NCBI GenBank assembly: GCA_963822175.1
Contig: CAWGGJ010000003.1
Span: forward strand, 666,287 to 730,286
DNA from: an uncultured Chloroflexia bacterium
Lineage (GTDB): Bacteria > Chloroflexota > Anaerolineae > Anaerolineales > UBA4823
Length of the DNA: 64,000 bases
Direction: 5' to 3'
Position 1 is the stretch's first letter. Every line of letters starts with the position of its first letter. The position numbers were made by a program, and so were the translations under genes. Shown here in pieces: positions 16,589 to 22,078 of the stretch. The notes beneath the pieces are model-generated. The model saw only the letters and a list, made by a program, of their open reading frames with translations. It was not told the DNA's origin and searched no databases.

Positions 16589-17938
<1,350 letters not shown>

Positions 17939-17943
17939 CTCCC

Positions 17944-17971
17944 TTGACAGCCAGGGAATAATGTATATAAT
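17944..17971 (+). promoter_or_regulatory. sigma-70-type promoter upstream of the cysK leader
   Basis: TTGACA (17944-17949), 16 nt, TATAAT (17966-17971). Confidence 0.6.
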
Positions 17972-18012
17972 TATTATGAATTTTGTCATATATATTCTTG
18001 AACAGGATTAAT

Positions 18013-18051
18013 ATGTTTCGATATTGCATCTGTCTGAGGCGGGGTTTATAA
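18013..18051 (+). promoter_or_regulatory. candidate leader peptide MFRYCICLRRGL with two Cys codons
   Basis: AGGA lies 5 nt upstream of the ATG. The TGC and TGT codons sit just 5' of hairpin arm 18036-18042. The stop codon lies in the hairpin loop. Confidence 0.35.
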
Positions 18052-18102
18052 CCGCCTCTCCGTCAAAAAAATAACCCTTACCGGGCGACCAACGTTCTGA
18101 CG

Positions 18103-18164
18103 AAAAGGTGGTAACACCCCGCATGCGAAATTATTCTCGCGTGGCTGGAAACGCCACCTTTTTT
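18103..18164 (+). terminator. terminator-like element of the cysK leader
   Basis: AAAAGGTGG (18103-18111) pairs with CCACCTTTT (18154-18162) and encloses an inner hairpin. A T6 run follows. Confidence 0.45.
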
Positions 18165-18210
18165 GTTTATGTGTTGGTCGTATGCATTTAAAGAAAGGTA
18201 CCTTTTTACT

Positions 18211-19143
18211 ATGAAAATTGCAAATGACATTACCCAGCTGATCGGCAACACCCCCCTGGTGCGCCTGAACCGCCTGGCAGAAGGCGCAAAAGCGGAGGTG
18301 GTGGTCAAGCTGGAATCTTTCAACCCGGCGCACAGCGTGAAGGACCGCATCGGGTTCTCGATGATCGAGGCAGCGGAAAGAGCAGGCAGGATCAAGGCCG
18401 ACACGATCATCCTGGAGCCCACCAGCGGCAACACGGGCATCGCCCTGGCTATGGTGTGCGCAGCCCGAGGCTACAAGTGCATGCTGACCATGCCGGACAC
18501 AATGAGCAAGGAAAGGCGCATGTTGTTACGGGCGTACGGGGCTGAGCTAATCCTCACCCCGGGGAGCGAGGGCATGCCGGGAGCCATCCGCACAGCGGAA
18601 GAGATGGCAGCAGCAGACCCGCGTTACTTCATCCCACAACAGTTCACGAACCCGGCCAACCCCGAGGTCCATCGCCGCACCACTGCCGAGGAGATATGGC
18701 AGGACACCGAGGGGAAGGCTGACTTCCTGGTGGCTGGGGTGGGGACGGGTGGAACCATCACCGGTATTGGCGAGGTGATCAAGGCACGCAAGCCGAGCTT
18801 CAAGGTGGTGGCGGTCGAGCCGGACGGGTCGGCGGTGCTCTCGGGTGGTCAGAAGGGGCCGCACCAGATCCAGGGGATCGGGGCAGGCTTCATTCCCGGC
18901 GTATTGAACACCAGCATCTACGACGAGGTGATGCGGGTGACAGACGAGGACGCTTTCGAGACCGCCCGCCGCATGGCCAGGCAGGAAGGCCTGCTGGTGG
19001 GTATCTCATCGGGTGCGGCGGTGTGGGCGGCACTGCAGGTGGCTGGGCGGGCTGAAAATGCCGGCAAGCTGATCGTGGTGATCATCCCGTCGTTCGGCGA
19101 GCGCTACCTGAGCACACCGCTGTTCGCTGACCTGGCAGATTGA
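18211..19143 (+). CDS. cysK: cysteine synthase A (O-acetylserine sulfhydrylase)
   Basis: [12 protein letters not shown], the PLP-lysine motif SVKDR, and the GTGGT loop. Start taken at ATG 18211 (MKIANDITQ). Confidence 0.92.
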
Positions 19144-19199: not shown

Positions 19200-19970
19200 A
19201 TGAGGTTGAAGATGGAGATTCACACTTACAGCAACACTGCCCAGCAAAACAGGGAGCATGCCGGGCTGCTGAGGACCATGCGCTGGGACGTCCAGGCGGC
19301 ACTCGAGCGCGACCCGGCGGCACAATCGGTGATGGAGGTTGTGCTGGGGTACCCGGGGCTGCATGCCCTGTGGGGGTACCGTATCGCCCACTGGCTGTGG
19401 CACCATAACCACAGGCTGACCGGACGCCTGTTCTCCCAATTCATGCGCAGCCTGACGGGGATCGAGATCCACCCGGGAGCCAGCATCGGGCAGGGGTTGT
19501 TCATCGACCATGGTATGGGGGTGGTGATCGGTGAGACGGCCGAGATCGGTGAGGACGTGACCCTGTACCACGGGGTGACCCTGGGCGGCACCAGCCTGGA
19601 GAAAGGCAAGCGCCATCCCACCCTGGGTGACCGGGTGGTGGTAGGCGCTGGGGCGAAGATCCTGGGGAACATCACCATCGGGGCAGATACCCGCATCGGG
19701 GCCAACGCGGTGGTGGTGAAGTCGGTGCCGGCCAACTCGGTGGTGGTGGGTGTGCCGGGGCAGAACATCGCCCGCAGCAAACCACATCACGCCTCCGACT
19801 CGCCTGACCTGGACCACACCGCCCTGCCGGACCTGGTGGGGGTATCGTTGATGGAGCTGATGCAACGCGTGGAAGCCCTGGAAGAGCAGGTGGACGGAGG
19901 GGAGGCGGAAAAACCGCACATCCATGCTCCTACCGACGGCAACTGGCATGGGGAAGACTTTTCGATCTAA
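19200..19970 (+). CDS. cysE: serine O-acetyltransferase
   Basis: ERDPA..., hexapeptide repeats and [18 protein letters not shown] 19212 is an alternative start. Confidence 0.9.
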
Positions 19971-20024: not shown

Positions 20025-21197
20025 ATGGATTATACTCATCCCATGCTGCCCACACTATCGCATGAAGAAATCCTGCGCTACTCGCGGCACCTGCTGATCC
20101 CGGATGTTGGGCTGGAGGGCCAGCGCAAGCTCAAAGCTGCCAGTGTGCTCATCATCGGCACGGGTGGGTTGGGCTCACCGGTAGCGCTGTACCTGGCGGC
20201 AGCTGGTGTGGGTCACATCGGGTTGGTGGATTTTGACGTGGTCGACCGGACCAACCTGCAGCGCCAGGTGATCCACGGCACATCGACGGTGGGCAAGCTC
20301 AAGGTCGAGTCTGCCCGCAAGCGCATGCTGGATCTGAACCCAGACATCCAGGTGGACACCTACAACGAAGCGTTCACTTCAAGCAACGCCATCGAGATCG
20401 CCAAGCCATACGACCTGATCGTGGATGGGTCGGACAATTTTCCCACGCGCTATCTGACCAATGACCTGTGCGTGCTTACCGGGAAGCCCAACGTGTACGG
20501 CTCGGTGTACCGCTTTGAAGGCCAGGTGAGCGTGTTCGATGCGCGGGTGGGGCCGTGTTACCGCTGCCTGTTCCCCGACCCGCCTCCCCCAGGCCTGGTG
20601 CCCTCGTGCGCGGAGAGCGGCATCCTCGGCATTTTGCCCGGCACGATTGGCACACTGCAGGCCACCGAAGCGATCAAGCTGATCCTGGGCACTGGAGAAC
20701 CACTGATCGGGCGGCTGCTGCTGTACAACGCCCAGGACATGTCGTTCGAGTTCGTGCGGCTGCATAAGAATCCCAAGTGCAGGGTATGCGGGGAACATCC
20801 CACGGTCACCGCGCTGATCGATTATGACCAATTCTGTGGAGTGCCCGGTCATACAACAGAAAGCGGGTCGGCAGGGGAAGAATGGGATATCACCCCGAGC
20901 GAGCTGGCGGAACAGCTGAGAGCCGGGGTTGAGCTTGACCTGGTGGATGTCCGGGAGCCACACGAGCTGGAAATCTCGCGTATCGAAGGAGCCCGCGTTA
21001 TCCCGCTGGGACAGCTGGCTTCACGCACCAACGAACTTAAGCAGAACGATGATATCGTTTTGATATGTAAAGCAGGGGTCAGGTCCACCCGGGCGCTGCA
21101 CATCCTGCTTGGAGCGGGGTTCCAAAGGCTGCACAACCTTAAAGGGGGGATGAATGCCTGGGCCAAGGAAGTCGACCCGAGCCAGCCGATCTATTGA
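20025..21197 (+). CDS. ThiF/MoeB-family adenylyltransferase fused to a C-terminal rhodanese domain (MoeZ-like)
   Basis: GTGGLGSP Rossmann loop, CYRC and CRVC zinc-site cysteines, and rhodanese active-site loop CKAGVRS. Confidence 0.88.
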   Translation: MDYTHPMLPTLSHEEILRYSRHLLIPDVGLEGQRKLKAASVLIIGTGGLGSPVALYLAAAGVGHIGLVDFDVVDRTNLQRQVIHGTSTVGKLKVESARKRMLDLNPDIQVDTYNEAFTSSNAIEIAKPYDLIVDGSDNFPTRYLTNDLCVLTGKPNVYGSVYRFEGQVSVFDARVGPCYRCLFPDPPPPGLVPSCAESGILGILPGTIGTLQATEAIKLILGTGEPLIGRLLLYNAQDMSFEFVRLHKNPKCRVCGEHPTVTALIDYDQFCGVPGHTTESGSAGEEWDITPSELAEQLRAGVELDLVDVREPHELEISRIEGARVIPLGQLASRTNELKQNDDIVLICKAGVRSTRALHILLGAGFQRLHNLKGGMNAWAKEVDPSQPIY

Positions 21198-22078
21198 TGA
21201 CAGCCAAGACTTCCCACCCACTGACGATGCTGGTCTGCCTGGCGCACCCTGACGATGAAACTTTCGGCATGGGGGGTACGCTGGCGCTGTACACCCGCCG
21301 TGGCGTGCATGTGCACCTGGTGTGCGGAACACGGGGCGAAGTGGGTGAAATGACCCCCGAGCTGATGCAGGGATTCAGCTCCATCGGTGAGCGGCGCGAA
21401 TCGGAGCTACGCTGTGCAGCAGGCATCCTGGGAATCGAAGGAGTGTACTTCCTCGGATACCGCGATTCGGGCATGCCTGGCACAGTGGACAACCAGCATC
21501 CCAATGCCCTGACCGCCCAGCCCGTGGATGAGGTGGCAGCGAAGATTGTCCATTATATCCGCTGGCTTCAGCCGATGGTGGTGGTGACCCATGACCCCAT
21601 TGGTGGCTATAAACACCCGGATCACATCGCCATGCACCGCGCCACCTTACGTGCCTTCGAGCTGGCGGGCGACCCCAGCTACATCACCGACTTGCCGCCC
21701 CACCTGCCTGACAGGCTATATTACCAGACCATGCCCAAGACTCTGCTACGCTGGGCGGTGAGGCTGGCGCCGTTGCTGGGGATGGACCCGCACAAATTTG
21801 GCCACAACAAGGATATTGACCTGGCGTCCTTGGTGGCAGAGGGAGATTTCCCCACGCATGCCCACATCAACTGCCGCAGCGTGCTGGAGACCAGGGACGA
21901 AGCGACAGCCTGCCATACGAGCCAATTGGGAGGAGCGATCGGGCGCAAGGGACCGATGAGCTTCCTTAGGCGCTACTTTGGGGTGACCGAGACCTTTATG
22001 CGGGCTTACCCCGTGCCAGGGAAGGGATTACGGGAGAAGGATTTGTTCGAGGGGTTGGGAGAGAGTACAGTTCAGTAG
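21197..22078 (+). CDS. PIG-L/LmbE-family N-acetylglucosaminyl deacetylase
   Basis: AHPDDE and HPDH motifs. The ATG overlaps the upstream TGA (TGATG). Confidence 0.8.
   Translation: MTAKTSHPLTMLVCLAHPDDETFGMGGTLALYTRRGVHVHLVCGTRGEVGEMTPELMQGFSSIGERRESELRCAAGILGIEGVYFLGYRDSGMPGTVDNQHPNALTAQPVDEVAAKIVHYIRWLQPMVVVTHDPIGGYKHPDHIAMHRATLRAFELAGDPSYITDLPPHLPDRLYYQTMPKTLLRWAVRLAPLLGMDPHKFGHNKDIDLASLVAEGDFPTHAHINCRSVLETRDEATACHTSQLGGAIGRKGPMSFLRRYFGVTETFMRAYPVPGKGLREKDLFEGLGESTVQ

Follow-up and report, generated by a model that had tools for sequence, protein, structure and literature searches.

A predicted cysteine-responsive ribosome-mediated attenuator upstream of cysK-cysE in Chloroflexota

The genome of an uncultured Chloroflexia bacterium (GTDB lineage Bacteria; Chloroflexota; Anaerolineae; Anaerolineales; UBA4823) encodes cysteine synthase A (cysK) and serine O-acetyltransferase (cysE) one after the other on the same strand. 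The DNA directly upstream of cysK holds a promoter, a short open reading frame (ORF) with two cysteine (Cys) codons, and several segments that can pair with one another in alternative ways. The locus lies in a stretch of 64,000 nucleotides (NCBI GenBank assembly GCA_963822175.1, contig CAWGGJ010000003.1, positions 666,287 to 730,286 of the forward strand) that we refer to as the window, and coordinates are counted from its first nucleotide. We consider it probable that the cysK leader controls cysK-cysE through transcription attenuation of the trp/his type, with the ribosome mediating the response to cysteine. An initial annotation of the region had interpreted it as a ribosome-mediated Cys attenuator, and this interpretation is supported by conservation, co-variation, the exclusion of Rfam families, and folding under ribosome masking.

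The window combines the elements of an attenuator, namely a leader ORF with a start signal, Cys codons, mutually exclusive helices that share a segment, and a predicted terminator before cysK (Table 1). The promoter that the initial annotation had called near-consensus proved to match at every position of both boxes; 41 nt separate the end of its -10 box from the leader ATG, and a scan of 3.5 kb found two promoter-like sites compared to 1.1 expected. Direct reading confirmed the 12-codon ORF with a ribosome-binding site (RBS) and with one TGC and one TGT codon. Its stop codon, TAA, sits in the loop of the hairpin formed by segments 1 and 2 (1:2), and both Cys codons lie outside every predicted helix. 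The three pairings that had been proposed among four segments were borne out. Segment 1 pairs with segment 2 (GAGGCGG at 18036-18042 with CCGCCUC at 18052-18058, -13.0 kcal/mol), segment 2 with segment 3 (CCGCCUCUCCGUC at 18052-18064 with GACGAAAAGGUGG at 18099-18111, 11 of 13 positions paired, including one G-U), and segment 3 with segment 4 (AAAAGGUGG at 18103-18111 with CCACCUUUU at 18154-18162, then U6-G-U3), the last of these being part of the minimum-free-energy fold. The four segments stood, but their number did not, as we found five segments plus an outer clamp.

Table 1. Features of the cysK-cysE leader and operon in the window
Feature	Coordinates	Strand	Sequence or motif	Remarks
Sigma-70-type promoter	17944..17971	+	TTGACA 17944-17949; TATAAT 17966-17971	16-nt spacer; 12/12 match
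Transcription start (inferred)	~17978	+		about 7 nt past the -10 box
Shine-Dalgarno motif	18004..18007	+	AGGA	5 nt before ATG
Leader ORF	18013..18051	+	MFRYCICLRRGL*	12 codons, then TAA 18049-18051
Putative sensor codons (Cys-x-Cys)	18025..18033	+	TGC-ATC-TGT	TGC 18025-18027, TGT 18031-18033; end one codon before segment 1
Segment 1	18036..18045	+	GAGGCGGGGU	pairs with segment 2, or via GCGGGGU 18039-18045 with X
Segment 2	18051..18065	+	ACCGCCUCUCCGUCA	starts at last stop-codon base; pairs with segment 1 or 3
Outer helix, 5' arm	18086..18093	+	CGACCAAC	in minimum-free-energy fold
Segment 3	18098..18112	+	UGACGAAAAGGUGGU	pairs with segment 2 (antiterminator) or segment 4 (terminator)
Segment X	18116..18122	+	ACCCCGC	follows segment 3; lengthens the antiterminator by pairing with segment 1
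Apical terminator hairpin	18122..18143	+	CAUGCGA ... UCGCGUG	CCCCGCAUGCGAAA conserved in closest relatives
Segment 4 and U-tract	18153..18168	+	GCCACC, UUUUUUGUUU	predicted attenuator terminator
Outer helix, 3' arm	18173..18180	+	GUUGGUCG	complementary to 18086-18093
cysK (cysteine synthase A)	18211..19143	+		first regulated gene (predicted); TIGR01139, 478 bits vs cut-off 351; PALP domain
cysE (serine O-acetyltransferase)	19200..19970	+		operon gene 2; TIGR01172, 250 bits vs cut-off 211

The fifth segment, X, can pair with segment 1. The 1:X and 2:3 helices are nested and would form one long antiterminator (1+2 : 3+X) with the stop codon in an internal loop. The outer helix encloses the whole terminator, whose hairpin (18107-18158, -20.8 kcal/mol) lies, on sequence evidence, 43 nt before the cysK ATG. 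Compared to dinucleotide shuffles, the 238-nt leader is unusually stable (z = -4.5; 0 of 200 shuffles as stable). A local 5-bp hairpin, GUGGC(UGGAAAC)GCCAC, is also present at 18141-18157 (-6.5 kcal/mol), one base before the U-tract, and is the site reported by a simple terminator scan.

A CysK protein search of species-representative genomes gave 80 loci, the closest of which belong to Anaerolineae/Chloroflexota metagenome-assembled genomes (70-85% identity). A search with the leader DNA placed the leader directly upstream of cysK in most of the closest relatives. A pattern scan recovered 45 leader instances at Anaerolineae/Chloroflexota cysK loci, and none of the 45 was in a locus recorded under another phylum. 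The cultured Levilinea saccharolytica KIBI-1 is among the carriers (locus L068, NZ_LGCM01000019.1). In metagenomes, at least 120 contigs matched a pattern that extends from the Cys codons through segment 1 to X; among the matches listed, 88 non-identical instances also carry the leader. The metagenome pattern fixes TGC/TGT, GGCGGGG and CCCCGCA, and this set is uninformative on the Cys third positions and on 1:X.

All 45 leaders share the arrangement TGC NNN TGT NNN NGG CGG GGN followed by a stop codon. A single codon always separates the Cys pair (C-x-C) from segment 1, and the stop codon falls in the interval between the first two segments. The Cys frame contains a complete short ORF in 40 of the 45 leaders, compared to 1 and 0 for the other two frames; an ORF was counted as complete if an ATG lay 2-12 codons upstream, the frame was then open, and it ended with a stop codon 4-9 codons past TGT. 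A GGAG/AGGA-type motif precedes the in-frame ATG in most relatives, and the TTGACA-16/17-TAnnnT promoter is kept upstream of the leader in 30 of 45. The short ORF that the initial annotation had pointed out is thus conserved before orthologous cysK genes, together with its frame and its two Cys codons. The fixed order of TGC and then TGT stands beside freely varying neighbor codons, and other orders occur in divergent relatives. Locus L015 carries the Cys unit twice (TGC ATG TGT CGG TGC TCC TGT).

The encoded peptides are 11-16 residues long. Their N-terminus varies in both length and sequence, the distance from UGU to the GGCGG core of segment 1 is constant, and the core itself is invariant. 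Across the 45 leaders, 8 different codons occur between the two Cys codons and 14 directly after TGT, and the stop codon is TAA, TAG or TGA. The second codon after TGT is AGG, GGG, CGG or TGG, encoding R, G or W, and this variation in the first base argues that the "RRG" tail is conserved as RNA (NGGCGGGG of segment 1) rather than as peptide.

Four other explanations of the leader, based on an untranslated riboswitch or protein-binding RNA, an output other than termination, an arrest peptide, or a micropeptide, are unlikely when taken together. Two of them concern the peptide. One possibility is that a TnaC-like arrest peptide senses free cysteine or a related metabolite in the exit tunnel, holds the ribosome at the stop codon and so enforces termination. 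The C-terminal sequence ...C-x-C-x-(R/G/W)-R-G-x-stop is indeed conserved at a fixed distance to the stop codon, and a ribosome at the stop is the state that we predict to terminate. However, the conserved part of the tail corresponds exactly to segment 1, and its codons change where RNA pairing permits (R, G or W), so RNA pairing suffices to explain the conservation of the tail, and the tails of divergent relatives are unrelated; we regard an arrest peptide as very improbable. Next to no credence can be given to the alternative that the product of the short ORF is itself a functional micropeptide, such as a C-x-C peptide with metal or redox activity, which is co-expressed with cysK, and that the surrounding hairpins are ordinary structure. 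The conserved C-x-C motif would agree with such a function, but the peptide has only 11-16 residues and no conserved N-terminus, mutually exclusive helices co-vary around it, and a terminator precedes the structural gene.

More divergent Chloroflexota cysK leaders encode CMCIC, CMCICLC, CACSCLC, CACTC or CCC, with three to four Cys codons and with mixed use of TGC and TGT. This variety suggests that several Cys-attenuator architectures exist within Chloroflexota, and what appears constant across the wider group is the cysteine codons and not a nucleotide motif. The leader ORFs of L050, L062 and L073 (AACCCQ..., NCACSCLC... and ICACTCL..., respectively) are unrelated, and each is followed by a canonical stem and a T-run terminator.

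We take conservation with co-variation across many species as the decisive test of the predicted pairings against chance. Because loop lengths differ between subgroups, 1:2, 2:3 and 3:4 were tested by permutation, in which the duplex energy of segments from the same species (cognate) was compared with that of segments from different species (non-cognate). In the genome set (n = 41), the cognate duplexes were favored for 1:2 (z = -2.7, p = 0.005) and for 2:3 (z = -7.1), 1:X (z = -6.6) and 3:4 (z = -13.3; p ≤ 2e-4 for these three), and two control pairings were not significant. Consistent with this, the permutation gave z = -12.7 for 2:3 and z = -21.4 for 3:4 in the 88 listed metagenome instances, where the one evaluable control pairing was not significant; the metagenome 1:2 test and 1:3 control were not used owing to a few empty segments. 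Each of the three pairings of the original scheme is therefore better within species than between species.

The remaining helices were assessed by column pair counts in a MAFFT alignment of 22 leaders (A1). A single reference fold projected onto A1 gave poor pair counts for the middle helices, and counts were kept just for 1:X and the outer helix, which are cleanly aligned. The 1:X helix was the sole consensus helix that RNAalifold retained on A1; it is paired in 22 of 22 sequences at four of six positions and shows compensatory changes at two positions. In the locus L002, it reads GCGGAGCC/GGCUCCGC. Compensatory changes were found in seven of the eight pairs of the outer helix across the 22 sequences. 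Taken together, 9 of the 15 pairs in these two helices show double changes, a number that 0 of 500 shuffles reach. A search of both strands of the window with an nhmmer profile of A1 and a relaxed pattern found only the leader at 18023-18180 and no further copy.

Strong RNA conservation of this kind could also mean that a ligand, tRNA or protein binds the leader RNA directly, as in a riboswitch, a T-box or a TRAP/PyrR-like system, and switches the terminator, with the short ORF being incidental and untranslated. The RNA is highly structured, the nucleotides UGC, UGU, GGCGG and CCGCA are invariant, and the fixed third positions of the Cys codons resemble conservation at the RNA level. Against this, the invariant bases other than the Cys codons all fall in 1:X and 1:2, leaving no aptamer-like junction core. 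The bias toward one ORF frame (40 of 45 leaders versus 0-1 of 45), the Shine-Dalgarno motif and an N-terminus of variable length point to translation, and divergent relatives retain several Cys codons rather than the nucleotide sequence. No T-box or riboswitch model matched even at E ≤ 10, and we consider a directly binding leader RNA to be quite improbable. A cmscan search with 4227 families of Rfam 15 found nothing relevant at E ≤ 10 in 17600-18600 and no match at the gathering score in the whole window. T-box and SAM leaders, which the initial annotation had named as classes to exclude, were rejected along with other Rfam leader classes, since the only matches were noise (cyano_het_sRNA, sR7 and AS-pc02, all E > 7).

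The predicted influence of the ribosome was modeled by folding RNA that ends at the start of the U-tract while a 27-nt footprint, from -15 to +11 nt around the first A-site base, was forced single-stranded. For the window leader, the 3:4 pairing had a probability of 0.90 with UAA in the A site, of 0.02 with UGU, and of 0.00 both with UGC and in the absence of a ribosome. The UAA state has the terminator hairpin of -20.8 kcal/mol, compared to the local hairpin at 18141-18157 (-6.5 kcal/mol) in the stalled states. In the genome set (n = 37), the terminator was favored in 30 sequences with the ribosome at the stop codon versus 12 at the first Cys codon and 15 at the second, and in the metagenome set (n = 81, among the matches listed) in 72 versus 33 and 36, with Wilcoxon p ≤ 1e-6 in all comparisons. 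Masked folding thus reproduced the logic of the initial annotation, in which a ribosome at the stop codon leads to the terminator and a ribosome at a Cys codon to the antiterminator, in most relatives though not in all.

Stepwise folding of the window leader adds a temporal order. Hairpin 1:2 holds until X emerges at about 18120, at which point 1:X and 2:3 form; the fold returns to 1:2 and 3:4 after segment 4 and the U-tract emerge, and the outer helix then locks the long hairpin. The antiterminator has an energy of -53.0 kcal/mol (RNA to just before the U-tract) and the terminator -55.1 kcal/mol (U-tract included), a difference of about 2 kcal/mol. In these models, near-iso-energetic folds and stepwise switching would be the behavior expected of a kinetic switch set by ribosome position.

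The attenuator mechanism that we infer has three steps: the hairpin terminates transcription, the position of the ribosome, which would stall at Cys codons, selects the fold, and the signal is charged tRNA(Cys). A ribosome would translate the 12-codon leader ORF behind the RNA polymerase that is transcribing the 200-nt leader. With an ample supply of Cys-tRNA(Cys), it would reach the UAA codon and its footprint would cover segments 1 and 2. Segment 3 would then be free to pair with segment 4, and the hairpin and U-tract at 18107-18168 would end transcription ahead of cysK. A shortage of Cys-tRNA(Cys) would instead stall the ribosome with UGC or UGU in the A site, and the leading edge of the ribosome would extend at most to the end of segment 1, leaving segment 2 free. 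Segment 2 could then pair with segment 3 as it emerges, and the exposed part of segment 1 with X. The resulting long antiterminator would replace the -21 kcal/mol terminator by a hairpin of at most -6.5 kcal/mol, allowing read-through into cysK.

Segment X may in addition change the default state of the switch. The 1:X pairing would let an untranslated leader adopt the antiterminator fold. We speculate that X inverts the classical default, such that termination requires a ribosome at the leader stop codon, although we hold this idea to be more doubtful than not. If it is correct, termination would depend on translation and there would be no "super-attenuation"; scarcity of Cys-tRNA would leave the operon on, and so would a depletion of ribosomes severe enough to prevent loading on the leader. 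The fixed UGC-N3-UGU arrangement would then be a tuning device of the five-segment design, as would the nested second terminator that lies behind the outer helix.

Several observations weigh against an attenuator of this kind. The leader has only two Cys codons, which are not adjacent, and their third positions are fixed in the canonical family (TGC first and TGT second in 45 of 45), for which amino acid identity alone is an insufficient explanation. In one subgroup, the T-run is found solely after the outer helix, making the competition between antiterminator and terminator less direct. In the window, the 5-bp hairpin beside the U-tract persists under antitermination; because it forms even when segment 3 is sequestered, antitermination in this leader may be leaky. 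About a third of sequences favor the terminator at equilibrium with the ribosome at the Cys codons, and a few sequences (L001 and the second leader copy of L024) keep the terminator in the stalled states. A looser measure, in which segment 4 may be paired with anything, separates the ribosome states much less well, and by it segment 4 stays mostly paired in the stalled states; these residual pairs belong to weak local hairpins (-2 to -6.5 kcal/mol) or to closures over long distances and not to terminator stems. Finally, all of the folding was done at equilibrium, whereas the actual decision is kinetic.

Alternatively, the leader ORF may sense Cys-tRNA but act through Rho-dependent termination, through the stability or processing of the mRNA at the long hairpin, or through translational coupling. 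Such an output has a precedent in the validated mycobacterial Cys short ORFs (sORFs), which act on translation (bioRxiv 10.1101/834739). It would also give a role to the strongly co-varying outer helix, which is superfluous for a simple terminator, and would accommodate both the relatives whose inner stem lacks a U-tract and the refolding of the full-length RNA into the long hairpin regardless of state. Many relatives have a second T-run behind the outer helix, and in one subgroup it is the sole T-run. However, a G+C-rich stem stands directly before a T-run in the window and in most relatives, whether after the inner or the outer helix, and divergent relatives have textbook terminators. Moreover, the cysK RBS lies outside all conserved helices, at a distance of 30 to more than 200 nt from the element. 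We therefore judge an output other than intrinsic termination to be improbable and favor transcription attenuation.

The genes that follow the leader are consistent with a cysteine signal. Among the metagenome matches listed, the first gene is cysK in 66 cases, a cysM-like gene with a JAB/Mec gene behind it in 19, a rhodanese sulfurtransferase with two domains in 5 and an enzyme of the cystathionine-beta-synthase type (PALP+CBS) in 4; the other listed matches are cut contigs, wrong-frame ORF calls, and chance hits in high-G+C DNA. The restriction of the leader to cysteine and sulfur genes among these matches fits cysteine as the signal. In addition, L007, L024 and L031 have a second leader copy before a cysM-like PALP enzyme gene, which is followed by a JAB (Mec-type) gene. 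On the metagenome contig Ga0209536_100920804 (L122), an ORF at 393-918 on the leader-oriented strand starts with MKIANDI like CysK and then diverges; by eye the remainder is fumarase/aspartase-like, and the contig is probably a chimeric assembly. In the window, cysE is followed on the same strand (20025-22078) by a gene for a MoeZ/MoeB-like ThiF+rhodanese protein and then by an overlapping gene for an MshB/BshB-like PIG-L deacetylase. This arrangement suggests that the operon joins cysteine synthesis with sulfur-carrier activation and a low-molecular-weight thiol pathway.

The region around the promoter has features of its own. An AT-rich inverted repeat, TATGAATTTTGTCATA, lies between the promoter and the leader ORF of the window (17975-17992), just past the -10 box. 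AT-rich inverted repeats are found at the same position in L003 (ATATTTATGACAATAGTCATAAATAT, about 2655-2680) and L055 (ATGACAAAATTAGTCAT, upstream of 823). These could be the operator of a dimeric repressor, and so an additional level of control, or could form a hairpin in the 5' part of the RNA. A hairpin at 17938-17959, ACTCCCT(TGACAGCC)AGGGAAT, contains the -35 box of the cysK promoter; it begins at the last stop-codon base of a lysine-2,3-aminomutase-like gene (16589-17938) and was scored as terminator-like on the minus strand by the terminator scan. A subgroup of loci (L010, L011, L013, L014, L016-L019, L021-L023, L029, L038 and L039) is without the TTGACA-16-TATAAT promoter, and in most of its members a motif resembling GGTAAGA(W)AAT lies about 45 nt upstream of the leader ORF. 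In this subgroup, the T-run stands behind the outer helix and not the inner stem.

Ribosome-mediated attenuation is documented mostly in Proteobacteria, Actinobacteria and a few Firmicutes, with cysteine being a late and sparse addition to the amino acids concerned. To our knowledge, there is almost no characterized gene regulation in Chloroflexota. The predicted leader family has more than 130 non-identical examples, support from co-variation, and a cysteine/sulfur regulon that includes cysK-cysE, cysM-mec, a rhodanese and a CBS-type enzyme. It could provide a rule for annotating such leaders, so far unannotated, in genomes and metagenomes of Anaerolineae, and the seed for a covariance model outside the existing Rfam families. 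As a natural five-segment variant, it could also serve as a test bed for the role of an extended antiterminator. Its significance is a balance between, on one side, a classical mechanism with precedents for cysteine and, on the other, a large family with clean comparative support, a poorly studied phylum, and a variant that can be tested.

The closest general model is that of the E. coli amino acid attenuators trpL, hisL, leuL, thrL, pheL and ilvL. As in these, the Chloroflexota leader has a short ORF with codons for the amino acid of the pathway, alternative 1:2, 2:3 and 3:4 pairings, a predicted intrinsic terminator before the first structural gene, and, as predicted here, the position of the ribosome as the sensor. 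All defining features of this class that sequence alone can address are present. Unlike the E. coli attenuators, it occurs in Chloroflexota, concerns cysteine, and has two putative sensor codons one codon apart that lie just upstream of segment 1 rather than inside it. Its stop codon separates segment 1 from segment 2, the terminator is enclosed by an outer helix, and a fifth segment, X, makes 1+2 : 3+X the ribosome-free equilibrium fold until segment 4 appears.

Cys-specific T-boxes of Firmicutes bind uncharged tRNA directly and switch a terminator before cysK, cysE or cysS, and they need no translation. The Chloroflexota leader resembles them in that it is predicted to read the charging of tRNA(Cys) and to switch a terminator before cysteine genes, but differs in that it gives no T-box match even at E ≤ 10.

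The initial annotation was made without awareness of an established Cys leader family, but leaders with Cys codons have been published for Actinobacteria (PMC1262725; bioRxiv 10.1101/834739) and for Rhodobacterales cysS (PMC8632094). Seliverstov et al. (2005) predicted Cys-rich leader peptides before actinobacterial cys operons, without terminators (PMC1262725), and Canestrari et al. (2020) described leaderless polycysteine sORFs of Mycobacterium smegmatis (the "Cys ribulon") that unmask a downstream ribosome-binding site (bioRxiv 10.1101/834739). As in mycobacteria, Cys codons of an upstream ORF are the stall sites (here predicted), the genes controlled belong to cysteine and sulfur metabolism, and several loci can be found per genome, including a rhodanese-type sulfurtransferase and cysteine synthases. 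In contrast to the leaderless mycobacterial sORFs, the Chloroflexota leader ORF has a -10 box 41 nt upstream of its ATG and a Shine-Dalgarno motif. The mycobacterial sORFs have a run of consecutive Cys codons, whereas the canonical Chloroflexota family has C-x-C, with CCC just in the divergent L050. Finally, they act by unmasking an RBS and have no terminator, whereas the Chloroflexota leader is predicted to alternate between terminator and antiterminator, and its helices end well before the cysK RBS.

A further precedent is uORFC-8-2, a predicted attenuator with tandem Cys codons and a terminator before Rhodobacterales cysS (Brewer et al. 2021, PMC8632094). Like the Chloroflexota leader, it is a predicted ribosome-mediated attenuator in which two Cys codons are conserved and a U-run follows the terminator stem. 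Compared by description, the Cys codons of uORFC-8-2 are in tandem at positions 14-15 inside the first stem, rather than one codon apart and upstream of the first stem. It has only two stems and precedes cysS in Alphaproteobacteria, whereas the leader described here precedes cysK, cysM and other genes, and the two show no sequence resemblance.

The concept of a Cys-codon leader is thus not new. We found no literature report of a Cys leader in Chloroflexi or Anaerolineae and no matching Rfam family, and the leader lacks the defining features of both the mycobacterial sORFs and uORFC-8-2. On this basis we regard it as a new family, apparently unreported, of a known attenuator type. Judged from the sequences, four features set its architecture apart: a C-x-C motif that closely precedes segment 1, a stop codon placed between segment 1 and segment 2, the additional segment X, and the clamp formed by the outer helix. 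If the prediction is correct, cysteine is sensed by stalled ribosomes in at least three distant phyla, through architectures without evident sequence or structural kinship.

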